IMG/VR virus record: IMGVR_UViG_3300028048_000136
Location: 5,410 to 69,409 of that record
Direction: 5' to 3' (one strand)
DNA: 64,000 nt
Origin: a virus
Taxonomy: Duplodnaviria > Caudoviricetes
Part shown: positions 16,037-64,000 of the stretch, piece after piece
Layout: each line of letters opens with the position of its first letter
Position numbering within the stretch: the first letter of the stretch is position 1
The notes under the pieces: generated by a model
The model's input: only the letters and a program-made list of their open reading frames with translations
Database searches by the model: none
Told to the model about the DNA's origin: nothing
Translations under genes and position numbers: made by a program

Positions 16037-16591
16037 ATGAAATTTAGCAAGTTTTTATATAAACCCAATGGATAAAAATATGCGTCTTTAGGCTCATATA
16101 TGCAGTCTAATAAATATATTATATAATATTTTAAAATTCGGTGAGACTGTTGTTTACAACAAATCTCACCAAACTCTTGGGAAGGACCTCTCGGAGTATA
16201 AAGCCTTCAAACATTTGTGTTACACACAGTTTGAACTAGAATTAGTTTCTAAATGGAACCATCTATCCTTCAGGGTTGATGTAGGTCACTAAATACAATT
16301 AATGAAAGATCATTAGATAAATATGATTTTGAAGACTCAATTTTAAAGCGTATGAAAAAGATGTTTCATAACGTTAAAACTGAAATCAAGGTTAGTGATA
16401 ATGGTACATATTTTAGTGTTAGATTTACTGTCTATGATGATTATGAAGCAAATGCTTATGGCGGTATGCCTTCATGGAAAAAATGGTTTAAAGAAGATTT
16501 AGGTATAGATCCTAAATCTGTTGAAGGTTCAAAAACACGTCATCTTGGCAGTGCTGGTGGATTTGATTATGAAATGCGTATTAATAAGTAA
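16037..16591 (+). pseudogene. 107-aa gene interrupted by a miniature tnpB-type element
   Basis: Removing 16059-16289 restores the frame MKFSKFLLNTINERSLDKYD...MRINK. Confidence 0.8.
16059..16289 (+). mobile_element. Non-autonomous IS200/IS605 derivative (left end + omegaRNA right end)
   Basis: Follows TTTAT, ends GGTCAC, near-identical to both ends of the 45404-46819 element. Confidence 0.9.
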
Positions 16592-28895: not shown

Positions 28896-29732
28896 ATGAA
28901 TATAATATCTTTTAATAATAAAGCAACAAAAATTGCATTAGGGTCATTCTTTCAATGCAATTTCAAAAATTCTTATTCAGTAACTATTTTAGGTGATGAA
29001 GATGAAGATCTAAAAAAATTCTTATCTTTATATACTAAAAATATAAAATTTAAAAACATAGATTTACTTGAAGCATTGAGAATATCTGATGACGAGACAA
29101 ACATCTTTATACACCCAAACTCACTCACATTAAAACCGATTGAGGACGACTTTTCTTGGTTTTCGCAATTCCAAATGGTTGGGCAAACAAGATATTGGTT
29201 AGAGAATGAATTATGGGACGAGGGTTTGAAAATTCCATTTGTTTCGGGAATTTTTTCTGACGGTTTTGTTATGTTTAATAAATTATACAAACCTGATTTG
29301 GAGCAAGAATACATAAACCGTTTTTGCTCAACCTTTAAAATTGAAAGGAACCACAAAGATTTTGAGATGATTTTCCTTTCTTGGTTGTGCATTAAAAAAC
29401 TAGCTGTAACAGATATTTCAGCAGAAAGCAAGTTTTTTCATTCTACGACTGTTAAAGATTTAAGACATATATATTTTTCGGATAACCCAGATAATCTTTA
29501 TCCTTGGAGTGTGGACATTAATTTCAAACTTCCTTATATTTTTGAACATCTGAACACTTATTACCAATATGCTGATAAGTTTAAATGCAGTTTTGCACAG
29601 CTTGTTAAAAGGAATTCTAAAATGCCATTGATGTCTTTTGAACAGGATTTTAGAAGACGTTTTGAGTTCAGAAGTTGGAGAAACGTTTTTATACCACCTA
29701 ACGAAAGAAATTTTGAAGTTTCTTTATACTGA
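28896..29732 (+). CDS. Hypothetical protein, possibly degenerate GT8-like
   Basis: 'IFSDGFVMFNK' resembles the GT8 FNSG motif; weak. Confidence 0.35.
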   Translation: MNIISFNNKATKIALGSFFQCNFKNSYSVTILGDEDEDLKKFLSLYTKNIKFKNIDLLEALRISDDETNIFIHPNSLTLKPIEDDFSWFSQFQMVGQTRYWLENELWDEGLKIPFVSGIFSDGFVMFNKLYKPDLEQEYINRFCSTFKIERNHKDFEMIFLSWLCIKKLAVTDISAESKFFHSTTVKDLRHIYFSDNPDNLYPWSVDINFKLPYIFEHLNTYYQYADKFKCSFAQLVKRNSKMPLMSFEQDFRRRFEFRSWRNVFIPPNERNFEVSLY

Positions 29733-29849
29733 CCTACATCTACCCTTTGGAGAAGATGTTTCCATTCCTCTATTTAAAATTTGTTTTTATATAAATATTA
29801 TATAATTATTAGAGTCTAAAGGCTCATATTTTTTATCCATTGATCTTAT
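29729..29849 (-). mobile_element. 121-bp miniature tnpB-type element (left end + terminal right-end hairpin)
   Basis: Minus strand: TTTAT|ataagatcaatggataaaaaatatgagcc...catcttctccaaagggtagatgtaggtcag. Confidence 0.8.
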
Positions 29850-29866
29850 ATAAAAGAGATAACACT

Positions 29867-35092: not shown

Positions 35093-35102
35093 TTATATAT
35101 AA

Positions 35103-35330
35103 TCTTTTGAAAGAACTGCGTTTCATAAAGATTATTTAGGAAGTAGAATTAAACGAGGTTTGTTTTTATCTTCGTTAGGTAAAGCGTTAAACGCTGACAT
35201 TAACGGAGCTTTAAATATACCAAGAAAATGTAATCAATGAGTTTTCTGTTTTACAGAAAATAATTGATAGAGGTCTTTTGTATAGACCAAGTAGAATTGC
35301 AATCTACTAAACAAAATGTTACTTTTGAAT
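35103..35330 (+). pseudogene. tnpB: 3' remnant of a second, IS607/IS1341-type tnpB plus omegaRNA-like hairpins
   Basis: 35103-35240 reads '...YLGSRIKRGLFLSSLGKALNADINGALNIPRK'; hairpins at 35272-35288 and 35290-35308. Confidence 0.75.
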
Positions 35331-35341
35331 ACATAAGATAA

Positions 35342-35722
35342 ATGATTTTAAAAAACTCTATGAATAACATTAATCCTTTACATATTCCTACACTTCAGCA
35401 AACTGCTGAAATAAGTAGAAATAAAGTACAAAAAGTTGTAAATGAAAGTGCTAAGTCCGAAAAAATTGACGACTTCACAAAAAAGTATTTTACAGACTTA
35501 GCGAGAGATATAGCAATATTAGTAACAAAGGATTATAGTTGTTATAAGCTTGTAAATCAAAACGGAACTAAATATACCGTTACTATGATTGACGTTAATG
35601 GAATTCCAGGAAAAGTCATTCATACAGACACAATTTGGGAAATAGGAAGTGTCCCTATACCATTTAGGGATTTGTTTACACCTAACTGCATTATTGAAAA
35701 AGGGTTTAAAGTTAGTGTATGA
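35342..35722 (+). CDS. Hypothetical protein
   Basis: ORF only. Confidence 0.5.
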   Translation: MILKNSMNNINPLHIPTLQQTAEISRNKVQKVVNESAKSEKIDDFTKKYFTDLARDIAILVTKDYSCYKLVNQNGTKYTVTMIDVNGIPGKVIHTDTIWEIGSVPIPFRDLFTPNCIIEKGFKVSV

Positions 35723-35728
35723 TTTCAA

Positions 35729-35805
35729 GGCCCTTTAGCTCAGTCGGTAAGAGCAGCCGACTCATAATCGGTTGGTGAATGGTTCAAATCCATTAAGGGC
35801 CACCA
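35729..35805 (+). tRNA. tRNA CAU, Ile2-like
   Basis: Cloverleaf, CAT anticodon, ileX-like body, CCA. Confidence 0.85.
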
Positions 35806-35825
35806 GGAATTAGTGTTAAGAATTT

Positions 35826-35901
35826 GGGTCGTTAGCTCAGTTGGTAGAGCAGTGGACTTTTAATCCATTGGTCGAGAGTTCGAGTCTCTCACGACCCACC
35901 A
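35826..35901 (+). tRNA. tRNA-Lys(UUU)
   Basis: Cloverleaf, CCA. Confidence 0.95.
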
Positions 35902-35920
35902 AATTGAATGTTTAAAGAAT

Positions 35921-35995
35921 AGCGGGTTGGAGAAGTGGTATCTTATTAGGCTCATAACCTAAAGGTAGGTGGTTCGATTCCATCACCCGCAACCA
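35921..35995 (+). tRNA. tRNA-Met(CAU), initiator-like
   Basis: 1:72 mismatch, CAT anticodon, CCA. Confidence 0.85.
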
Positions 35996-35999
35996 TTTT

Positions 36000-36290
36000 A
36001 AGACGTTTTAGTAAAAACGCCGAAAAAGTTGAATAGGAGTAGTGACCTATTTGACTTGCCTCACAAATTGAGGTCGAAAGTTTTTGATTAAGTCAATTCA
36101 AAAGGTGTTCATACTGCCTTTAATGTGATTGCTAAGTGTTAATGTATCTAAATTGAACGGTAATGGTACATTGTTTAATTAAACGAGTAAGATAAGAATT
36201 TGTTTGGTCTAGATATTGACTAGGATAACAACCTTCTAAGAAACTTTACAAATCACTTGAAAAAGTAAAAAGACTTAGAAAACGTTTTTT
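36000..36290 (+). ncRNA. Candidate structured RNA of about 290 nt
   Basis: Several nested stems, no ORF, between two tRNAs. Confidence 0.5.
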
Positions 36291-36294
36291 GAGT

Positions 36295-36370
36295 TCCTCC
36301 TTAGTTCAGTCGGTAGAACGGCGGACTGTTAATCCGTATGTCGCAAGTTCAAGTCTTGCAGGAGGAGCCA
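36295..36370 (+). tRNA. tRNA-Asn(GUU)
   Basis: Cloverleaf, CCA. Confidence 0.95.
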
Positions 36371-36371
36371 C

Positions 36372-36445
36372 GCAAGTATAATTTAATGGTAAAATGCTGT
36401 CCTTCCAAGTCAGATTTGCGGGTTCGATTCTCACTACTTGCTCCA
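36372..36445 (+). tRNA. tRNA-Gly(UCC)
   Basis: Cloverleaf with some stem mismatches, CCA. Confidence 0.8.
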
Positions 36446-36487
36446 ATTACAAGGGAAAAAGTCTTGCATTAGCAAGAGGTAAAAAAA

Positions 36488-36670
36488 ATGAAAGTATTTG
36501 AAATGGGAATTCCAAATTATGCTTACGTTTGGATTTGGTTTTCTGATGATTTAGAAATTAGATGTTCATATTTTGATTTACCTGAAAATTATAAATATTC
36601 AAACGTTAAAAGATATTGGAAAAGAATGAATGAAGACGGAATTGAAATTTTTAATGTAGAAATTTGTTGA
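36488..36670 (+). CDS. Small hypothetical protein
   Basis: GAGG RBS, 60 aa. Confidence 0.5.
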   Translation: MKVFEMGIPNYAYVWIWFSDDLEIRCSYFDLPENYKYSNVKRYWKRMNEDGIEIFNVEIC

Positions 36671-37084
36671 CAACTTATAAATACTATATTATAATATAAT
36701 ATATAAAGACTTTTAAAAAGATCTTAACTGCAAATAACTAAAGAAGTTTGTTTTAACATCTATAGGATAGATCTTGTTTTTGTTGACAAATTATGAATAC
36801 TATATTATAATGTAAAATATAAAGTCTTATAAAGATCTTAACTGCAAATATCTAAAGAAGTTTGCCTAACTAAAGATCTTGTTGACAAATTATGAATACT
36901 ATATTATAATGTAAAATATAAAGTCTTATAAAGATCTTAACTGCAAAATATTAAGTTTATATATCAAAGCTGAATAGATCTTGACATTGTAAATATACAA
37001 GGTAATTAACTTACTTTGTGCTCTTTTTAAAAGATCTAAACTGCAAAATTTAAAGCATTTTATAGTACCACTGACTAGATCTTG
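36667..37084 (+). repeat. Four promoter + small hairpin RNA units
   Basis: TTGACA-17-TATAAT at 36667, 36783, 36882; four AAGATCT(T/A)AACTGCAAA...AGATCTTG units. Confidence 0.85.
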
Positions 37085-37107
37085 TTTTATGACTTTGTAG
37101 AAACAAT

Positions 37108-37180
37108 GTTCCCATCGTCTAATGGTTAGGACACCACCATTGAGAGGTGCTAATAAGATTCGACCATCGTTGGAACGCCA
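37108..37180 (+). pseudogene. Degenerate tRNA, Glu-like body
   Basis: Shares ends with the 38174 tRNA; broken T arm; loop ATTGAGA. Confidence 0.7.
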
Positions 37181-37224
37181 TTTAATAAAGTTTAAACACT
37201 TAGTGCAAAAAATAGGAATTCTTA

Positions 37225-38172
37225 ATGTTTTGCAAACAATGTGGTAAAGAACACAACGGAAGTTATGGTTCTGGTACATTCTGTTCACAGTTTTGTGCAA
37301 GACGATATTCTGCTTTAGTTAATAAAGAAGTTAAAAATAAAAAGATATCCGAAAGTCTTAAAGGTAAAAAACATTTAAAGACTGATGAAGAAAAAATAAA
37401 GCACGAAGAATACGAACAAAATCCTAATTATTGTAGCATTTGTGGTAAATTTTTAGAATTTAATAAACGATTTAACAAAACATGTGGATCTAAAGAATGT
37501 GCTTTTCGTAATTGTGGTGGTTCTAGGAAAAATTCAGGTAATTCTTTAGGCGGTTGGTACAAAGGAATATTTTGCCATTCTACTTATGAATTAGTATTTG
37601 TAATATATTGTTTAGACCACAATATAAATATTAAACCTTGTAAAACAACGTTTAAATATTTTGGTACAGATAACAAAGAACATACTTATTATCCTGATTT
37701 TATTGTAAATAATGAAATAATTGAAATAAAAGGATATTTTAGTGATTCTGTAAAGTTAAAAGAGGAAGCAGTTTTAAAAGCTGGCAAATCTTATAAAATT
37801 TTGTATAAAAAGGACTTGACAGAATGTTTTAATTATGTGTATAATAACTACACAAATAATTTAAAAACTTTATACGAAGATTATAAACCTAAATATAAAT
37901 ATGTGTGTTCACATTGCGGAAAAGAGTTTTATGTCGATAACAAAAGAACAACAGAAAAAATATATTGCTGTAGAAAATGTTCCTTGTTAGGTAATCGTTC
38001 TGTAACTAATAAAATATCCGAAGGTTTAAAACATTATTATGCTGAGCATAAAACTGATAGAAAACCTTATAAAAGAAAGTACAAACAACAATGGATAACA
38101 AACGGTACTATTAAAACAAGAATTCCTCTCGGTAATGAAATTCCTGAAGGATTTCATAGAGGTAGAAGATAA
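37225..38172 (+). CDS. Free-standing endonuclease, PD-(D/E)XK TnsA-like, with zinc fingers
   Basis: 'STYEL...YYPDFIV...EIKGY'; CxxC clusters; 'WITNG...GFHRGR' tail. Confidence 0.7.
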   Translation: MFCKQCGKEHNGSYGSGTFCSQFCARRYSALVNKEVKNKKISESLKGKKHLKTDEEKIKHEEYEQNPNYCSICGKFLEFNKRFNKTCGSKECAFRNCGGSRKNSGNSLGGWYKGIFCHSTYELVFVIYCLDHNINIKPCKTTFKYFGTDNKEHTYYPDFIVNNEIIEIKGYFSDSVKLKEEAVLKAGKSYKILYKKDLTECFNYVYNNYTNNLKTLYEDYKPKYKYVCSHCGKEFYVDNKRTTEKIYCCRKCSLLGNRSVTNKISEGLKHYYAEHKTDRKPYKRKYKQQWITNGTIKTRIPLGNEIPEGFHRGRR

Positions 38173-38173
38173 C

Positions 38174-38248
38174 GTTCCCATCGAATAAGGGTTAGTTCAC
38201 TTGGCCTTCAATCAAGTAATACGGGTTCGAATCCCGTTGGGAACGCCA
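38174..38248 (+). tRNA. tRNA-Glu(UUC)
   Basis: Cloverleaf, CCA; C at position 33. Confidence 0.85.
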
Positions 38249-38331
38249 CACTTTAGCGATTTACAATGGAATTAAAAAAATTGACAGAAGCGCCAGAAAA
38301 ATTAAATGGTCTCTGTTAATTCCTCACAAAA

Positions 38332-38407
38332 TGGGGTATAGCCAAGTGGTAAGGCAGCTGATTTTGATTCAGCCATTTCCTAGGTTCGAGTCCTAGTGCC
38401 CCAGCCA
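38332..38407 (+). tRNA. tRNA-Gln(UUG)
   Basis: Cloverleaf, CCA. Confidence 0.92.
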
Positions 38408-38413
38408 TATTAA

Positions 38414-38842
38414 ATGACAAATAAGGAATGCCCGATGAATGATATAATTTTTAATGAATCTTGTGTTTATCGTTTTAAACCAACTTCAAACCACAGACGC
38501 TGTGATAGATGTGTCTTTCAGATTGTCTTAAATAGTGAAGGAAAATGGTCTGTATATCACTTCAATCGTGCTAAGGGTGTAACACCACCAGAAAAATATA
38601 ATACCATGAATTTTGACGAACAGTTAGATAAACTAGAAAGCCAATTGACTGATCTTCCTTCTTCTGATAAAGTTATTGAGTTCATTGATGATACTTTGAA
38701 AAGATATAATGCCAAACCAAAGGTAGCAGCTGACTTTTTAGGTTCAATCAAAGATGTTCTATCTTGGTGTGAACCTTTGAATGAAAAAGAAATGTATGCG
38801 AGAGCTGAATTGGAACATTATGAAAAAGGTAATCCTTTGTAA
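38414..38842 (+). CDS. Hypothetical protein
   Basis: ORF. Confidence 0.55.
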   Translation: MTNKECPMNDIIFNESCVYRFKPTSNHRRCDRCVFQIVLNSEGKWSVYHFNRAKGVTPPEKYNTMNFDEQLDKLESQLTDLPSSDKVIEFIDDTLKRYNAKPKVAADFLGSIKDVLSWCEPLNEKEMYARAELEHYEKGNPL

Positions 38843-39377
38843 AGCATTCCTTAGTTCATTATTTTGTGGAATGCTCGGTGTTATTTTTATGATTTGGGTA
38901 ATTCCTAAACTTGGTCAAACAGGATTGGGAATTAAAAATGCAGGCGAATTAGGTGTTTCATTTTTAGCAACATCTATTGTTTCATTCAAGAAGATTATTT
39001 CTTTAATACATAATAATATAAGAAAAATGATAATTTTTGGATGGCTTATATCCTATGTTGACTCATTTTTGATTTTAACAGAAAATATATGGATTATTGT
39101 TGCTTCTTGTATGTTTGTAGGCTACTTTGTTCTTAATTTTTATTTTTGTGGTATGAATAATATCGTAAATGAAACATTCCACGAAAAAGAGTTGACTCAA
39201 TTACAAAATCAGAAAAATAGTTTTTGGACAGCAGGAGCTTCAATAGGTGCTGTTTTAGGAGCATTTATACCTAATACCTGCTTTTGTATGTTCTTAATCT
39301 GTTTTATTGAAACGACCATTTGTTTCTTTCTATCTTGGAAAATGGTGAATATATATGAAAAAAGAAATTTTGGATAA
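38820..39377 (+). CDS. Multi-pass membrane protein
   Basis: About six hydrophobic segments; start moved to ATG 38820. Confidence 0.6.
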   Translation: MKKVILCKAFLSSLFCGMLGVIFMIWVIPKLGQTGLGIKNAGELGVSFLATSIVSFKKIISLIHNNIRKMIIFGWLISYVDSFLILTENIWIIVASCMFVGYFVLNFYFCGMNNIVNETFHEKELTQLQNQKNSFWTAGASIGAVLGAFIPNTCFCMFLICFIETTICFFLSWKMVNIYEKRNFG

Positions 39378-39639
39378 TTTCGACTTTGAAAGTGTTCACC
39401 GTGTGATGGAATTTATTCACTTTGCTCAAAAAATTCCTTCAATCAAAGAAATGAAGAAACACACTAGCAAGCTCATTGACAATGCACTCAAAGGTCTTAA
39501 AAAATCTGGACTCAACGAATACATCGTTATATCGGGAGGGTTTGAGGCTTGTGCATTTTACGGAGAAGAAGGAGCTGAGGTTGCATTACGATTTATAGGA
39601 TTGCAACTCTTTTGGAGAAAAAAGACATTGACATTCTAA
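39355..39639 (+). CDS. Hypothetical protein
   Basis: ORF. Confidence 0.5.
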   Translation: MKKEILDNFDFESVHRVMEFIHFAQKIPSIKEMKKHTSKLIDNALKGLKKSGLNEYIVISGGFEACAFYGEEGAEVALRFIGLQLFWRKKTLTF

Positions 39640-39816
39640 TAATTATATTATATAATATTTTAAAATTCGGTGAGTCTGTTGTTTACAACAAATCTCACCA
39701 AACTCTTGGGAAGGACCTCTCGGAGTATAAAGCCTTCAAACATTTGTGTTACACACAGTTTGAACTGGAATTAGTTCTAAATGGAACCATCTACCCTTTA
39801 GGTAGATGTAGGTCAC
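39628..39816 (+). ncRNA. Stand-alone TnpB omegaRNA scaffold with perfect sigma70 promoter
   Basis: TTGACA-17-TATAAT (39628-39656), then the right-end sequence to GGTCAC; left-end hairpin absent. Confidence 0.8.
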
Positions 39817-39840
39817 AAGTTTAATAGATAACAGAACAGC

Positions 39841-39918
39841 GGAGCGGTAGTTCAGCTTGGTTAGAATGCCTGCCTGTCACGCAGGAGGTCGCGGGTTCGA
39901 GCCCCGTCCGTTCCGCCA
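39841..39918 (+). tRNA. tRNA-Asp(GUC)
   Basis: Cloverleaf, CCA. Confidence 0.96.
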
Positions 39919-39928
39919 AATTAAGTTC

Positions 39929-40017
39929 GGAGAGATGGGTGAGTGGCTGAAACCAACTGCCTACTAAGCAGTCAACCGTTTTTCGGTTCGTGGGTTCGAA
40001 TCCCACTCTCTCCGCCA
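39929..40017 (+). tRNA. tRNA-Ser with ACU anticodon
   Basis: Long variable arm; loop CT-ACT-AA; CCA. Confidence 0.88.
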
Positions 40018-40075
40018 CTTTATAAGTGTTTGTGAAAAGATTTTTTAATCATTAGTGAGCACATTTAATTTTTAT

Positions 40076-40293
40076 AAAAATCAATGAATAAAAATATGAG
40101 CCTTTAGACTCATATATACAGTCTAATAAATATATTATATAATATTTTAAAATTCTGTGAGTCTGTTGTTTACAACAAACTCTTGAGAAGGACCTCTCGG
40201 AGTATAAAGCCTTCAAACATTTGTGTTACACACAGTTTGAACTGGAATTAGTTCTAAATGGAAGTATCTACCTTTAGGGTAGATGTAGGTCAC
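40076..40293 (+). mobile_element. Non-autonomous tnpB-type derivative (left end + right end)
   Basis: Follows TTTAT, ends GGTCAC; short deletion inside the scaffold. Confidence 0.88.
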
Positions 40294-40352
40294 ATAATAT
40301 AAATAGAATGCACTTGCTTTAATTAAGCAAATAACGAGTTGGAGATTAATTA

Positions 40353-40730
40353 ATGAAAGAGTTTTTACCTATAAAAAGAGAAGAAGCAATTAAGAAAATT
40401 GCTGAATATTTCAGAACTACCAATTCCGAAACAGTAGGTATTGTCTTTGAAAAGCAAAGAGATGCTACAGCATTTTTAGATGAAGTTAAAAAGAACTTAG
40501 ATAAAGGAAGAGTTTGGAATAAGAAATCAATTGAGTCTAATACCAACACAAGAGTTGTGACTGATAATTGTAGAAACCCAATAAGAATTTTGTCAGGTTG
40601 GTCTTGTTCAAAACTCTTCATAGAGCAAAAATGCTTTGAAAAACATTCTGAAGATTTTTACAAAACTTGTATTTGTCCTCAATGTGCTTTAAACCCTGAT
40701 AATGTTGAAAACTACCTGATAATAGATTGA
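40353..40730 (+). CDS. Hypothetical protein
   Basis: ORF with GGAG RBS. Confidence 0.6.
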   Translation: MKEFLPIKREEAIKKIAEYFRTTNSETVGIVFEKQRDATAFLDEVKKNLDKGRVWNKKSIESNTNTRVVTDNCRNPIRILSGWSCSKLFIEQKCFEKHSEDFYKTCICPQCALNPDNVENYLIID

Positions 40731-40739
40731 GTTTTTGAA

Positions 40740-41012
40740 ATGAATGTACAAATACCTTTTGATTTACTTGGTGATTATGAATCAATGGTTCTCAATACCG
40801 ATGACTCTTTTTATCAATTAACGGTACGCTATCAGGGTGCTAATATAACAATAACTCTAAATAAACACGAAATAGAATCATACGATTTTAAAATTGCTGA
40901 ACCTGAAGGAAAAAGAAAAGTTAAAGAAGTTCTACCATCTTTAATTGGATATTTTGAAAAACTTGGTTATATAAATGTTTGCAGAATAAATGAAATTCAA
41001 GAATTACATTAA
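40740..41012 (+). CDS. Hypothetical protein
   Basis: ORF. Confidence 0.55.
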   Translation: MNVQIPFDLLGDYESMVLNTDDSFYQLTVRYQGANITITLNKHEIESYDFKIAEPEGKRKVKEVLPSLIGYFEKLGYINVCRINEIQELH

Positions 41013-41053
41013 AGTCTTATAAATGGTGAATTTGTGCTATTCGGTGTAGAAGA

Positions 41054-41458
41054 ATGAACGAAATAACAAAATTAAAAACTGATACCCTAAGTTTTACTAT
41101 TTATATGGTAGAAAATTATATTAGTGGTTTATACAAAGAACTTGAAATGTGTAAAGGTTCCATTCCAAAAGAAGAGGAACTTAAAATGCACATTAAAGAT
41201 TGTGAATTATGTCTTGAGGAATTAATAATATCTAATCTACCGAAAGATGAAAAAAGAAGGACAATCAAAGAATTATTAGATTTGCGGATGGTAAATTATC
41301 CAATAGAGGTAAATGGGGAACCATACGATGAGCATAAACATGGTAACCTAATACACATTGATACTGCTATAGAAACCCGCGAAGAATTTAGCTATATACT
41401 AAAATATAAAGCTGTTAAAAAAGATAAATTTTTGTCTCTATTAAAGGAATTAAAATAA
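41054..41458 (+). CDS. Hypothetical protein
   Basis: ORF. Confidence 0.55.
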   Translation: MNEITKLKTDTLSFTIYMVENYISGLYKELEMCKGSIPKEEELKMHIKDCELCLEELIISNLPKDEKRRTIKELLDLRMVNYPIEVNGEPYDEHKHGNLIHIDTAIETREEFSYILKYKAVKKDKFLSLLKELK

Positions 41459-41460
41459 CA

Positions 41461-41916
41461 ATGAAATTCAAGAATTGCATTAAAGAAGATTATCAAATAC
41501 AACATAGACCATCGGGACCAGATGACGAAACACCTAGTCTTGATAAAATCGAGGGTTCTGAAATAGCTCCTGATGATCTGTTTAGGCATCCAGAATATTA
41601 TTTGAATGCCTCGGAAGTAACCACTTCTGAATTGAAAAAGTTTATAGATCTTGTTAAGAAAGCACAGGGAAAACCTGACGCTAAGATCAAGATTTATAGA
41701 GGTGCTCCATCGGGTGGAAAACTCAATAATGGCGATTGGGTAACTCCATTCAAGAGTTATGCTATGGCTTATGCGTATGATAACGCTTACTCTGATAATG
41801 CAGAGTCAAAAGTTTATGAGTACACGGTTAAAGCATCGGAGCTGACTTGCGATTTGAACAGTCTTGCTGAATGGGGATATTTCGGAAAGACTATAATGGG
41901 CAAAGAAACAAAGTGA
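41461..41916 (+). CDS. Possible ADP-ribosyltransferase-fold protein with MKFKNCIKE leader
   Basis: 'IYRG...GDWVT...YA...EWGY' pattern. Confidence 0.4.
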   Translation: MKFKNCIKEDYQIQHRPSGPDDETPSLDKIEGSEIAPDDLFRHPEYYLNASEVTTSELKKFIDLVKKAQGKPDAKIKIYRGAPSGGKLNNGDWVTPFKSYAMAYAYDNAYSDNAESKVYEYTVKASELTCDLNSLAEWGYFGKTIMGKETK

Positions 41917-42090
41917 GTGCCCAACCAAATTCTGTGTAGGTAAAAGCTATCTAAAACCTACACGAAGGCAGCGAAATTTAAAATTTCGCAAAACGGTAAG
42001 TGTCTAAGATAGATAACGGCACTTAGTGCAATGGGTGAGATGAAAATCCACACGAACGTTTGTTGCCTGACGTCCATTTTGGTATTGCAC
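41917..42090 (+). ncRNA. Candidate structured RNA with loop-loop pairing
   Basis: Four hairpins, two long-range stems, CTATCT/AGATAG complementary loops. Confidence 0.6.
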
Positions 42091-42108
42091 ATTTTTAGTT
42101 CAAAATCA

Positions 42109-42184
42109 GCTGGATTAATTCAATTGGTAGAATGCCTGTTTTGTAAACAGGAGGTTAGGGGTTCGAGTCCTCTATCCAGCACCA
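42109..42184 (+). tRNA. tRNA-Thr(UGU)
   Basis: Cloverleaf, CCA. Confidence 0.93.
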
Positions 42185-42201
42185 CTTATGACTATTTCAA
42201 A

Positions 42202-42921
42202 ATGATAGATTTACAAACATTAAAAAAATATTTAAGCAAATCGAAACAAACCGTTGAGGAAGTTATTACCCCACCCAAAAAAGAAATGATTGACGGCCTG
42301 TTTTCTAAATTATTTAAAAATTTTACTGGAAATGGTTTACAGAAACGAGGATCTAGCATAAAAATTGATGAAAATGGCATTGTGTCAAATCTAAGTTCTG
42401 GTAATTATTTAATGACAGATGTTTCTTCTTCCGTTTTTACACAAGGAAACTTTGAAATTCAGGTAAAATTTTTTAAAACCAAATTAACCCCGTTAAATAA
42501 CTCATATTATACTTGGGATTGGGTAGGTAGTAGTAATGACCCACCATTATTTTGTGCATTTGGCACTAATACGAGTTCATCAAAATTAAATTGTCACACT
42601 TTTTATTATTTTAACCAAAGATATTATGTGATAGGATCCGTTTCACTTCCAAACAATTCCGAGGAAGAAGTCGTAAATAAATGGTTGTATTATAATTTTA
42701 AGTACAACAATGGGGTTTCAGAGTGCAGAATAATGGACGAAAATTATAAATTGCTTGCTGAAAACATTTTTGAACTCGGAATTAAGCCACAAAACATAAC
42801 TTCAAAAGTTGCGATTGGTAATTATTCAAATTATGTCGGACAACCTACGGCAATAAAGTATGACCTATCTGAAAGTTACATTAAAGTAAATGATGAAATC
42901 GTTTCAAGTTGGAATAAATAA
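42202..42921 (+). CDS. Hypothetical protein, beta-rich (lectin-like?)
   Basis: True start after the tRNA; the 42031 start in the ORF track overlaps RNA genes. Confidence 0.5.
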   Translation: MIDLQTLKKYLSKSKQTVEEVITPPKKEMIDGLFSKLFKNFTGNGLQKRGSSIKIDENGIVSNLSSGNYLMTDVSSSVFTQGNFEIQVKFFKTKLTPLNNSYYTWDWVGSSNDPPLFCAFGTNTSSSKLNCHTFYYFNQRYYVIGSVSLPNNSEEEVVNKWLYYNFKYNNGVSECRIMDENYKLLAENIFELGIKPQNITSKVAIGNYSNYVGQPTAIKYDLSESYIKVNDEIVSSWNK

Positions 42922-42941
42922 TTTTTCCAGAGGATATACTT

Positions 42942-43205
42942 ATGAATTTTGTTAACATTATAATTTGTGTTATTTTTGCTATTTTTTATACAGAAGCATT
43001 TATTGTTTATATTGGCATCCACATTTGTTTTCTTGCTTTATTTGCTTTAATGCTTGCTTTCATAAAATTATCACCTGAAAAGATTGATAGGATAGAAGCA
43101 AATCTCCGAGAAAAGCAGGAAAAGAGAAAGAAGTTAGATGACAAGTTAATTTCTTTGCTTAGAGCCTCAAGCATTGAGGAAAAATTTAAAATTTTTAAAA
43201 ACTGA
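42942..43205 (+). CDS. Small membrane protein
   Basis: Hydrophobic N-terminal half. Confidence 0.5.
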   Translation: MNFVNIIICVIFAIFYTEAFIVYIGIHICFLALFALMLAFIKLSPEKIDRIEANLREKQEKRKKLDDKLISLLRASSIEEKFKIFKN

Positions 43206-43284
43206 TTTACATTAAGGGAACTCTTTTGAGTTCCTTTTTCTTTATATAATAAAAGCACTTCAAAAAATGAAGTGCTTTTTAATT

Positions 43285-43495
43285 GAGTGAACACAAAAAT
43301 TTTAAATGGATCCAAAATTTTTTTTTTAATGTATGAACACAAAAAAATTTATATATTCTATATATAGAAAATTAAAAACACATTTTAAATGGATCCAAAA
43401 ATTTAATTGTGTCCTCACAAAGATGTGTTCATACAAAAATTGTGACCTCACAAAGATGTGTTCATACAAAAATTGTGACCTCACAAAGATGTTTA
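43285..43495. repeat. Iteron-like repeat region A
   Basis: GGATCC units at 43308 and 43391, TTCTATATATAGAA palindrome at 43356, 33-bp tandem repeats at 43405/43438/43471. Confidence 0.85.
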
Positions 43496-44698: not shown

Positions 44699-44740
44699 TG
44701 TGATCTAGATCACACACTTATTTTAAAAATGTTCTATAAT
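44699..44740 (+). promoter_or_regulatory. CRP-consensus box with -10 element
   Basis: TGTGATCTAGATCACA-20 nt-TATAAT. Confidence 0.7.
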
Positions 44741-44771
44741 AGAAATGTAAGTTAAAGAGAGGATTAAAAAT

Positions 44772-44999
44772 ATGAACCACGTTATTAAATATAAGGATTC
44801 CGTAATCACTTTACGTTTTATAAGAAAATGTAAGTGGGGCAACCTCATTGAGGGTGAACTCACTCCTTCAAAAGAACAGAGAAGATATTTCAAGCTGGGT
44901 ATTCCTACATCAGGACTTAGAGTTAAACTCTCAACCTTAGAATGTGATTCAAGAAGAGTAAAGGAGCTTGTACAAACCCTTGCAGAGATAGACACATAA
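44772..44999 (+). CDS. Hypothetical protein
   Basis: Flanked by about 58-bp direct-repeat promoters. Confidence 0.6.
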   Translation: MNHVIKYKDSVITLRFIRKCKWGNLIEGELTPSKEQRRYFKLGIPTSGLRVKLSTLECDSRRVKELVQTLAEIDT

Positions 45000-45000
45000 T

Positions 45001-45042
45001 TGTGAACTAGATCACACACTTATTTTAAAAATGTTCTATAAT
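45001..45042 (+). promoter_or_regulatory. CRP-consensus box with -10 element (duplicate)
   Basis: TGTGAACTAGATCACA-20 nt-TATAAT. Confidence 0.7.
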
Positions 45043-45303: not shown

Positions 45304-45403
45304 GAGGCATTTAAAGAATGAGGTACATTGTTACGGACCCTTGTTACATTATAAGAGATGACAAAGTTTGGAAAGAATTTTGCAAAAAATCAAACGAATT
45401 TAT

Positions 45404-46819
45404 ATAAACCCGATGGATAAAAATATGAGCCTTTAAGCTCATATACACTCTAATAAATATATTATATAATATTTATATAAAAATAGAGGAATTTGAATGA
45501 CTAAGATTATCAGAGGTTTAGTTCTTGAACTAAAGCCTGATAGTGCTCAAAAACTGCTTTTAGATAAGCATTTAAATGATTGTAGATTTATCTATAACAA
45601 ATATGTTGAAGAATATTTAAAAGCACTTAAAGAAAATAGAGCACCAAATTATAAGGATTATAAAGAATTGCGTACGGAGTACGAATTTCTTTTAGGTTCT
45701 TATTCATGGTCTATTCAACAAGTTCTTTATAAATTTAAACAGACCAATAAAATCAATAGATCAAAAAGAGCAAAAGGTCAAAAGGTTGGATTAGTTAGAT
45801 TCAAATCTAAAAAGGCCCATTCAGATTATTTTTATAGTAATAATTTAAACCTTTCGTATAATCCTGACTGTAAGTCAAAGTCATACGTAAAAATTCCAAA
45901 GGTAGGAAATGTTCATTTTAACTGTAAAAATATTAAACCTGAATTTTTAAACGGTAAAATTAAGTCAGGAACTATTAAAAGAACCAAAACCGGAGTTTAC
46001 AAAGTATCGTTACTTGTCGAGGTCGACAAGGTTTACGAAGACCGTGTGGATAATGGACATATTGGTTTAGATTTTTCCCTAAAAGATTTCTTCGTTGACA
46101 GTTTTGGTGCAAATGCACCAGAGTTCTCAACAAAGAGATCTAAGATGGAATTACTCCAAAATAAAATTAATTCTTTAAATACTGCTATTTCAAAGATGAT
46201 AAACAAATCCAAGAAAAAGCGTAAGGTCTCCGTTAAAGTCCATCGTATCACGATGAAGCGTAACAAATTATTTGAAAGAGTTCATAATATCCAAGTTGAT
46301 TATATCAACAAGTTATCAAGAAATTTGTGTAAACACAATGAGTTGATAGTTATTGAGAACTTAGACCTTAAAGAAATGGCTGAACATACTTCTTATAAGG
46401 ATTCCAAAATTTCCACTAAAGGTGGAAATCATGGAAAGTCTATAAGTTTGTTACAATGGAGTTATTTTCTCAAAAAGTTAGAAGAAAATGCTGAGAAGTT
46501 TGGAGACATAATTGTCTATACAGACAAATACTATCCAAGCTCTCAGGTCTGTTCTAAATGTGGAGAAAGGAATCCAGAAATGAAAGATGTTACCAACCGT
46601 ACACTAAAGTGTAAGTGCGGTAATATTATTGATAGAGATTATAATTCAGCAATTAATATTTTAAAATTCGGTGAGTCTGTTGTTCACAACAAATCTCACC
46701 AAACTCTTGGGAAGGACCTCTCGGAGTATAAAGCCTTCAAACATTTGTGTTACACACAGTTTGAACTAGAATTAGTTTCTAAATGGAAGCATCTACCCTT
46801 TAGGGTTGATGTAGGTCAC
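45404..46819 (+). mobile_element. IS200/IS605-family tnpB-only element (IS1341-like), TAM TTTAT
   Basis: Subterminal left- and right-end hairpins, no target duplication, ends TCAC, no tnpA. Confidence 0.92.
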
Positions 46820-46849
46820 AGGTCCTTATGTTACACCAGAGGCAGTTAA
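45497..46849 (+). CDS. tnpB: TnpB RNA-guided endonuclease
   Basis: RuvC 'IGLDF', 'VIENL', 'DRDYNSAINI'; zinc finger CSKC/CKC; catalytic D-E-D intact. Confidence 0.95.
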   Translation: MTKIIRGLVLELKPDSAQKLLLDKHLNDCRFIYNKYVEEYLKALKENRAPNYKDYKELRTEYEFLLGSYSWSIQQVLYKFKQTNKINRSKRAKGQKVGLVRFKSKKAHSDYFYSNNLNLSYNPDCKSKSYVKIPKVGNVHFNCKNIKPEFLNGKIKSGTIKRTKTGVYKVSLLVEVDKVYEDRVDNGHIGLDFSLKDFFVDSFGANAPEFSTKRSKMELLQNKINSLNTAISKMINKSKKKRKVSVKVHRITMKRNKLFERVHNIQVDYINKLSRNLCKHNELIVIENLDLKEMAEHTSYKDSKISTKGGNHGKSISLLQWSYFLKKLEENAEKFGDIIVYTDKYYPSSQVCSKCGERNPEMKDVTNRTLKCKCGNIIDRDYNSAINILKFGESVVHNKSHQTLGKDLSEYKAFKHLCYTQFELELVSKWKHLPFRVDVGHRSLCYTRGS

Positions 46850-47379
46850 GGTTTTAAGAGAATACATTGGACTTTCAACTGATGACCTCATAGAAGTTGA
46901 GGAAACAGGTTATGGTGATTGGTGCAATTCTATCAAATCGCTAAGTGATAAAGTTAATATCATAAGAAAAGGATTTTATGCTGACGCTGGTTTGGTTTGC
47001 GTTGTGCCTCTTACTGATGATTTAAAAGACGTTAATGGAGCAATTTTTGAAGTTCCTGATAATGCAAAGATTACAGTCGATTTAGACACCAAAAACAAAT
47101 ATTGGACTATGATATATGTTTATATGGATAACAATTTAGTTGTGGTGTCCGAACAAAATGAGGAAGAAGAAGTTTGATTTTTGGGATGGTTTTGATTTCC
47201 CACCAAAAAGAAGTCCTTTCTTGAAAAACTTTTAAATTTTTTTAAAAGGAAATAAAAATGCGTGTTTATGACATTCTCAATTTTAATAACGGCATTTCGG
47301 AAATAGCAATAAGAGTGGGAAAATAATTGTCGCTCAAATATTTTCAACGAAAATTTTAAGGAGCTTGAATTTTCTGAAA

Positions 47380-48254: not shown

Positions 48255-48344
48255 ATCATTCAAATTCCTTAATATAAATATTAAATATAACTCCAATGCC
48301 TGTATATGAGCATAAAGTCTCATATTTTTTATCCATTGGTTTTT
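48255..48344 (-). mobile_element. Left-end remnant of the tnpB element
   Basis: Minus strand: ccaatggataaaaaatatgagactttatgctcatatac...aggaatttgaatga. Confidence 0.7.
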
Positions 48345-48375
48345 AAATACTTAAAATATTTTAAAGGAATTTTGT

Positions 48376-62995: not shown

Positions 62996-64000
62996 ATAAA
63001 CCCAATGGATAAAAATATGAGCCTTATACTCATATTTACACTCTAATAAATATATTATATAATATTTATATAAAAATAGAGGAATTTGAATGACTAAGAT
63101 TATCAGAGGTTTAGTTCTTGAACTAAAGCCTGATAGTGCTCAAAAACTGCTTTAAGATAAACATTTAAATGATTGTAGATTTATCTATAACAAATATGTA
63201 GAAGAATATTTAAAAGCACTTAAAGAAAAAAGAGCACCAAATTATAAGGATTATAAAGAATTGCGTACGGAGTACGAATTTCTTTTAGGTTCTTATTCTT
63301 GGACTATTCAGCAAGTTCTTTATAAATTTAAACAGACCAATAAAATCAATAGGTCAAAAAGAGCAAAAGGCAAAAAAGTTGGATTAGTTCATTTTAGATC
63401 TAAAAAGCCCATTCAGATTATTTTTATAGTAATAATTTAAAACTTTCGTATAATCCTGACTGTAAGTCAAAGTCATACGTAAAAATTCCAAAGGTAGGAA
63501 ATGTTCATTTCAACTGTAAAAATATTAAACCTGATTTTTTAAACGGCAAAATTAAGTCAGGAACTATTAAAAGAACCAAAACTGGTGTTTACAAAGTATC
63601 GTTACTTGTCGAGGTCGACAAGGTTTACGAAGACCGTGTAGATAATGGTCATATTGGTTTAGATTTTTCCCTAAAAGATTTCTTCGTTGACAGTTTTGGT
63701 GCAAATGCACCAGAGTTTTCAACAAAGAGATCTAAGATGGAATTACTCCAAAATAAAATTGATTCTTTAAATACAGCAATTTCAAAGATGAGAAACAAAT
63801 CTAAGAAAAAGCGTAAGGTCTCCGTTAAAGTCCATCGTATCACGATGAAGCGTAACAAATTATTTGAAAGAGTTCATAATATCCAAGTTGATTATATCAA
63901 CAAGTTATCAAGAAATTTGTGTAAACACAATGAGCTGATAGTTATTGAGAACTTAGACCTTAAAGAAATGGCTGAACATACTTCTTATAAGGATTCCAAA
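62996..64000 (+). mobile_element. tnpB: Second copy of the tnpB element, ORF inactivated, runs off the window
   Basis: Follows TTTAT; ATG 63090; TTA>TAA at 63153; 1-bp deletion near 63407. Confidence 0.92.

Follow-up and report, generated by a model that had tools for sequence, protein, structure and literature searches.

About 75% of tnpB loci are without tnpA (PMC10055086), and what sustains the majority of tnpB genes, which have no tnpA nearby, is still debated. PATEs (mini IS200/IS605 elements without a gene) frequently code for omegaRNAs that depend on TnpB supplied in trans (PMC10055086; 2023), and a 'transposon non-restorative homing' into co-infected phages, which dispenses with TnpA, has been proposed (PMC13565253). 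TnpB-only IS200/IS605 copies were described in T4-like phages in 2010, namely ISCaje1-4 of the Campylobacter phages CP220/CPt10 (PMC2853527); there, as in the family analysed here, multiple TnpB-only copies are present, their sites differ between sister phages and the target is AT-rich (ATTTT in ISCaje1-4), whereas minis and guide RNAs were left undescribed and one ISCaje element has tnpA. The family analysed here is a phage-resident, non-autonomous IS200/IS605 family, and we regard it as the probable account, with some reserve, that its TnpB uses the guides of gene-less mini-elements in trans and homes into co-infecting relatives. What the parts are is almost beyond doubt; that mini RNAs are used in trans and that homing takes place are inferences. 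Multi-guide homing restates published ideas (PMC10055086, PMC13565253), and host and phage are both uncultivated; what is new is a better-documented phage example, by virtue of an exact natural empty allele, convergent deletion junctions and a complete relative that is free of TnpA.

The stretch of DNA that was analysed (the window, 64,000 nt, to which all positions refer unless otherwise stated) comprised bases 5410-69409 of a 69,409-bp IMG/VR virus contig (G000; completeness estimate 38%), with a G+C content of about 31% and 10 tRNA genes. T4-like markers in the window were a Gp23-like capsid gene (Pfam) and a T4-type tail sheath, the latter about 41-42% identical to the sheaths of Vibrio and Campylobacter T4-like phages (including CP220/CPt10), and near-identical DNA was held by bovine-gut runs from 13 studies. 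The virus carrying the elements, which is uncultivated, belongs to the T4-like phages of the cattle gut. Both ends of the 69-kb contig fell inside additional tnpB copies (positions 1-287 of the genome record and 62996-64000 of the window), so the assembly broke in repeats. A related record of 87.7 kb (G002) likewise started in a tnpB right end and stopped in a tnpB left end, and the gene sets of G000 and G002 were complementary when matched to a complete 158-kb relative (G005). On the strength of these tnpB-ended contigs and complementary gene sets, G000 and G002 are probably the two halves of one genome of about 157 kb, split by assembly at near-identical tnpB copies.

The only intact tnpB copy lay in element A (45404-46819, + strand), a TnpB-only IS200/IS605 element of 1,416 bp situated directly 3' of its target and TAM, TTTAT (45399-45403, +). 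From the left end, A comprised a subterminal hairpin (45423-45444, +; ATATGAGCC-TTTA-..CTCATAT), which is presumed to be the TnpA binding site and whose stem covaries among the copies, a promoter (45442-45470, +; TATACA-17-TATAAT), the RBS AGAGGAA at 45485-45491 and an ATG at 45497, with which a tnpB ORF of 450 aa begins (45497-46849, +). Pfam PF12323 (HTH_OrfB_IS605), PF01385 (OrfB_IS605) and PF07282 (Cas12f1-like_TNB) were all matched above cut-off; in phmmer, the core aligned with ISDra2 TnpB (8exa/8h1j) over residues 7-390 with E of about 4e-33, and the RuvC residues D192/E287/D381 and the zinc residues C352/C355/C372/C374 were kept. Since the relatives of this TnpB stop at about residue 421-441, the last 50 or so codons of the 450-aa frame are read-through of the RNA-coding region and 30 nt of flank. 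Subterminal hairpins with CC-TTTA-GG tops and covarying stems were present at both ends of A, which thus combined TnpB, scarless insertion 3' of a motif, terminal hairpins and a conserved RNA fold, the attributes of TnpB-only (non-autonomous) members of IS200/IS605.

With ISDra2-type TnpB-only elements (Karvelis 2021, Meers 2023, PMC10055086), A shares the protein domains, the RuvC and zinc residues, the overlap between tnpB and omegaRNA, the duplication-free insertion 3' of a 5-nt motif that equals the TAM, the hairpins at both ends and the absence of tnpA. It differs from them in residing in a lytic-type T4-like phage and not in a bacterial chromosome, in having TTTAT as TAM, and in that its empty alleles would come from co-infecting relatives instead of TnpA excision. 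Hundreds of close metagenomic relatives were found in this TnpB clade, and no DNA match to the element was found in the phage database.

Element A splits a phage gene (45318-47177, +, in the pieces 45318-45403 and 46820-47177), the N-terminal piece of which matches phrog_20074. Excising 45404-46819 restored a 147-aa ORF, and in a contig of 4,921 bp, which belongs to a bovine-gut run from another study, window position 45403 was joined straight to 46820; this contig is thus the empty A allele. An intact 154-aa allele of the split gene (...KKSNEF/IGPYVTPEA...) was found on this contig and on one from another sample, both with the gene order of the window minus the element; filled and empty A had identical protein across the site, and their DNA differed at 5 positions within the 354 nt that follow the joint. 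Similarly, excising the mini-element m1 (16059-16289) restored a 107-aa ORF, and at the protein level intact 107-aa alleles (start MKFSKFL/LNTINERS) were found between sheath and holin genes on syntenic related contigs. A and m1 both had exact ends, and target duplication was absent. Filled and empty alleles therefore coexist, as is characteristic of homing elements, and the empty alleles that the guides had been proposed to match do exist in nature, at the DNA level for A and at the protein level for m1. In view of the restored ORFs, the empty-allele contig and the uninterrupted 154-aa protein, at least A was inserted or lost recently and without a scar, in line with the behaviour of peel-and-paste IS200/IS605 elements.

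Across the six records, nearly all left ends were preceded by TTTAT or ATTAT (WTTAT), the latter being the main variant in related records; a given pentamer is expected at only about 0.5% of positions at a G+C content of about 31%, so the association of TTTAT with left ends is not due to chance. An exact-pattern scan of IMG/VR did not find the empty A site, and when codon-degenerate patterns were used, neither the empty m1 site nor the empty A site was matched in IMG/VR or JGI metagenomes. Virtual empty sites were constructed for 13 elements and compared by blast with all records searched; a junction-spanning match was absent, the backbones being too divergent. No meaningful 16-nt guide match preceded by TTTAT (off-target) was found in the records searched. 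Downstream of the split gene, a 191-bp stretch (47174-47364) was absent from contigs of the X4 and X10 runs, and in these strains the split gene encodes 154 aa with a different C-terminus.

The predicted omegaRNA scaffold of A (46670-46819, +) was composed of the hairpins P1 (46670-46700), P2 (46703-46727), P3 (46735-46765), P4 (46768-46780) and P5 (46790-46811), the last of which is the right-end hairpin, followed by TAGGTCAC. The candidate guide flank of A (46820-46839, +; AGGTCCTTATGTTACACCAG) was unique among all records searched. When 19 right ends from five records were aligned, they fell into the same five hairpins, with 94.4% of cells paired (28-48% when slid by 1-3 columns) and 17 pairs changed on both sides (0-4 in slid controls), values reached by none of 500 shuffles. 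For 21 minis alone, taken from six records, 95.2% of cells were paired (35-42% when slid by 1-3 columns) and 21 pairs were changed on both sides (1-4 in slid controls), again with 0/500 shuffles reaching the observed values. P3 and P4 varied in length or were substituted by an unrelated hairpin, with the bases still paired; P1 was missing from one full-length variant and one mini class and broken in the mini m3, and is dispensable. No Rfam family was found for the right-end RNA. The alignments point to a conserved omegaRNA, one that would take its guide from the flank and whose sequence is partly shared with the 3' end of tnpB and with the right end. The mini scaffolds of the window were 89-97% identical to that of A; because these minis are young, their intact folds alone carry little weight, and the covariation among minis may have been inherited from full-length parents.

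The original prediction had placed seven related copies in the window, five of them after TTTAT, with tnpB intact in only one. All seven were found by blastn self-search with a 1.6-kb stretch, the ends being read individually, and TTTAT preceded m1, m3, A, B and the relic at 29.7 kb. Copy B (62996-64000, +), which follows TTTAT, is cut by the contig end and has the promoter TTTACA-17-TATAAT, is 96% identical to A; its tnpB is a pseudogene, interrupted by a stop at codon 22 and frameshifted near codon 105. Mini m1 (16059-16289, +; 231 bp) interrupts a 107-aa gene (16037-16591) after TTTAT and consists of the left-end hairpin, TATAAT, an TAATATTT junction at 16124-16131 and the full scaffold. 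Mini m2 (39628-39816, +; 189 bp) is without the left-end hairpin and has TTGACA-17-TATAAT (39628-39656) and the full scaffold, and mini m3 (40076-40293, +; 218 bp), directly after tRNA-Ser, has the left end, TATACA-17-TATAAT (40115-40143) and a scaffold shortened by 10 nt. The 24-nt flank of m2 (39817-39840) adjoins tRNA-Asp (39841-39918), and m2 and m3 bracket the tRNA-Asp/tRNA-Ser pair; RNase P cleavage at tRNA-Asp could set a defined guide 3' end for m2. In relic r2 (29730-29854, -), TTTAT, left end, promoter and RBS are fused to the last 35 or so nt of the right end without a scaffold (a hairpin-only PATE), and relic r1 (48256-48350, -) has only a left end with a degenerate target motif and fills the gap from a PD-(D/E)XK gene to a Gp23-like gene. 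Flanks beyond the right end differed at every copy.

Minis m1 and m3 are gene-less, have both ends and carry a scaffold, and thus have the make-up of omegaRNA-bearing PATEs; m2 departs from these in its missing left-end hairpin and r2 in its missing scaffold. The PATEs of Geobacillus stearothermophilus are likewise gene-less and multicopy, with ends, scaffold, varied flanks and a TnpB presumed to be elsewhere (PMC10055086). The minis here differ from those PATEs in that only a few bases lie between the element's left-end promoter and the scaffold to which it is fused, in that several independent junctions converge, and in that m2 has lost the mobility hairpin. The minis were also likened to the stand-alone omegaRNAs that Altae-Tran reportedly described in 2021.

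In m1, m2 and m3, the left-end TAATATTT (45467-45474 in A) is joined to the right-end TAATATTT (46654-46661 in A), with 1,187 bp deleted. Read from the sequence, the deletion in each of the three has the predicted effect, namely removal of tnpB and joining of the left-end promoter to a complete, structurally conserved scaffold with a different flank. That the three share one junction held in so far as all use TAATATTT, but a single event was not proven, and one ancestral deletion behind the shared junction was rejected on that account. The right end of m1 groups with those of A/C0 and that of m2 with that of m3, and the promoter of m2 is the type from the genome's other half; given two right-end subtypes, two promoter subtypes and the microhomology in every parent, a shared junction need not mean one event. 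At least six distinct deletion junctions were present in the six records, with the right breakpoint always at element position 1255-1303, just 5' of the scaffold. Junctions in related phages ran from left positions of about 85-90 to right position 1260 via ATTTTAAA, from about 59 to 1263, from about 72 to 1258, from about 85 to 1283 and from about 49 to 1303, and a further class, in the record G006, had its right breakpoint at 1255. P2-P5 were retained by all scaffold-mini junction types in the related phages, and a second class of minis had the terminal hairpin only. The clustering of the junctions suggests selection for the scaffold; alternatively, AT-rich microhomology acting as a deletion hotspot could explain it without selection.

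In the minis, the -10 element TATAAT ends 4 nt ahead of the junction, and a start predicted about 7 nt downstream of the -10 would lie 5-6 nt before P1. As sigma70-type promoters, those of m3 and A scored 10/12, the -35 of m1 was weak, and that of m2 was a perfect TTGACA-17-TATAAT, of which the window contains just four. The other three perfect sites stand in tandem at 36667-36910. A high-depth contig of an RNA run starts at 36918, 8 nt past the last -10 of these tandem promoters, so the consensus is probably in use in this phage. Depth in RNA run X2 was very uneven (2-5 in 29-35 kb and about 550 in 37-39.6 kb), and its contigs break 30 nt into each repeat, which makes the run uninformative on mini transcripts and on the level of tnpB.

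These junctions and promoters bear on the strongest rival explanation, according to which the minis are inert deletion products, MITE-like PATEs that are moved by TnpA in trans and have no working guides, the scaffold being kept only because a favoured microhomology happens to sit just upstream. An TAATATTT or ATTTTAAA microhomology is indeed present at both breakpoints in every parent, yet at least six independent junction types all leave P2-P5 intact. Scaffold-less, hairpin-only derivatives exist (r2, G002:31408, G005:12449), and the broken P1 of m3 and the weak -35 of m1 would also fit inert copies, but m2, which has lost the transposition hairpin, has kept a perfect promoter and an intact scaffold. 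The window minis are too young for decay to show; against this, the 21 minis from six records have 95% pairing with compensatory changes. Inert minis are on this evidence unlikely, if deserving of serious weight.

Counted as a single genome, G000 and G002 would have 1 intact tnpB (A), 3-4 broken or cut copies, 6 scaffold minis and several relics, and the complete G005 has 1 intact tnpB, 1 frameshifted copy and at least 3 scaffold minis. The genome-wide census thus gave one intact tnpB with several scaffold minis both in G000 plus G002 and in G005, and the single intact TnpB proposed for the window holds, as far as visible, for the putative whole genome too; on these counts, 'one nuclease, many guides' is a fair description. 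A 52-kb ENA contig from another sample (L107) was 100% identical to window 35464-43459 and, beyond 43459, had the A-locus tnpB joined to the right end and genes from the very start of the G000 contig; this join reflects a genuine rearrangement between tnpB copies or else a chimeric assembly.

Y1 (PF01797) and serine (PF00239) TnpA were not found in G000, G001, G002, G003 or the complete G005, with positive controls, so that the predicted lack of tnpA in the window extends to the 69-kb contig and four related records, including the complete 158-kb genome. Neither the element nor these genomes contain the Y1 or serine TnpA of an autonomous IS605/IS608. A 1.7-Mb 'Bacilli' MAG (G006) contained many short contigs of 26-28% G+C with genes of these phages and with dozens of TnpB elements and minis, and gave more than 60 element matches; its phage-like contigs may be phage DNA that was binned in error, or they may hint at the host lineage. 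On one of these contigs lies a tnpA relic (C25:25923-26081), in which a promoter resembling that of the left end is found together with the C-terminal 53 aa of a Y1 TnpA (33 bits) and a hairpin of the element's type, CC-TAAA-GG. No close relative of the TnpA relic was found in IMG/VR, element DNA was not found in 105 genomes from the order of the 'Bacilli' MAG, and no source of TnpA was identified. Element DNA was 79-83% identical between phages whose proteins were only 30-55% identical. This distribution would imply that true transposition, by TnpA supplied in trans, spread the family: homing requires homologous flanks and the elements span divergent phages, so TnpA-driven transposition would be needed. 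Homing does not account for the arrival of the family at new loci or in phages whose backbones cannot be aligned.

In the account that we favour, the full element runs from a left-end hairpin through a sigma70-type promoter and tnpB to an omegaRNA scaffold, with which the 3' end of tnpB and the right-end hairpin overlap, and inserts directly after TTTAT without target duplication, so that the 16-20 nt past the right end become the guide; TTTAT plus the guide sequence is then present only in genomes without the insertion. Deletions between AT-rich microhomologies gave rise to gene-less, PATE-like minis in which left end, promoter and the entire scaffold are retained. The TnpB made by the one intact copy would bind the near-identical omegaRNAs encoded by the minis as well as its own and would cut empty alleles in co-infecting relatives, into which T4-type recombinational repair would copy the insertion, that is, homing. 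Moves to new loci or distant phages would depend on a Y1 TnpA that the host or a different element provides in trans. The outcome would be that of SegB and SegF, the free-standing homing endonucleases of T-even phages, and of non-restorative homing (PMC13565253), in which the co-infecting allele is cut and converted; m2 and m3 flank tRNA genes, the region on which SegB acts in T4. Recognition here, in contrast to SegB and SegF, would be by RNA guide and TAM and not by protein.

Co-infection brings in empty alleles without excision, so that TnpB, if served by many guides, could promote its own spread and that of the minis in the manner of several homing endonucleases. The multi-guide homing originally predicted is a plausible reading, to which the promoter-scaffold fusions, the one intact tnpB and the empty alleles lend support; taken as the route to new loci, homing would be overstated. 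A bolder version, possible rather than probable and put forward tentatively, is that the TnpB system has shifted from transposon maintenance to phage-level multi-guide homing or exclusion, in which about 10 promoter-driven guide cassettes would serve one nuclease, some of them (m2) being non-transposable and processed by tRNA maturation, with no phage TnpA. Such a shift, if true, would mean biased inheritance at many loci, or killing of relatives, during co-infection. Several candidate guide cassettes and a single intact nuclease are available at this locus, together with exact ends, a TAM and a filled/empty polymorphism that occurs in nature.

A second rival, partial domestication, would make the left-end relics outward late promoters and m2 a fixed guide gene, its 3' end set by RNase P at tRNA-Asp, with a use in competition or regulation and not in element spread. 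On its reverse strand, the left end carries TATAAATA, a T4 late-promoter box, which occurs 20 times on the gene-rich + strand and 6 times on the - strand, mostly 35-100 nt before the starts of structural genes. AT-rich sequence easily yields such boxes, but those in r2, r1 and B, at 29790-29797 (+), 48273-48280 (+) and 63063-63070 (-), aim at the gene starts 29867, 48376 and 62986, with the relic taking up all of the intergenic gap in each case; a strain without A has r1 and r2 as well. While the best promoter belongs to m2, which is immobile, the flank of m2 had no other match in the records searched, and the original TTTAT side of m2 is lost. Taken together, these points leave partial domestication improbable. 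An IStron (IS605/IS607 plus group I intron; PMC10690162), likewise a TnpB element in a coding gene, was rejected, because Rfam at gathering thresholds found only the 10 tRNAs and no group I intron in the window, and the left end, from the TAM to the start of tnpB, is just 93 bp.

Two further variable segments were noted in the window. A 302-bp cassette (44705-45006), with a small gene at 44772-44999, lies between direct repeats of about 51 bp with TGTGA-N6-TCACA palindromes, and one contig of run X1 was without it. At 35094-35328, a remnant of a second, unrelated tnpB family consists of the last 30 or so codons (...ADINGALNI..., a weak PF07282 match), with hairpins downstream and a promoter-like site in front. 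A contig of the X4 strain lacked exactly these 235 bp and had 2 other letters instead, so this remnant is also polymorphic.
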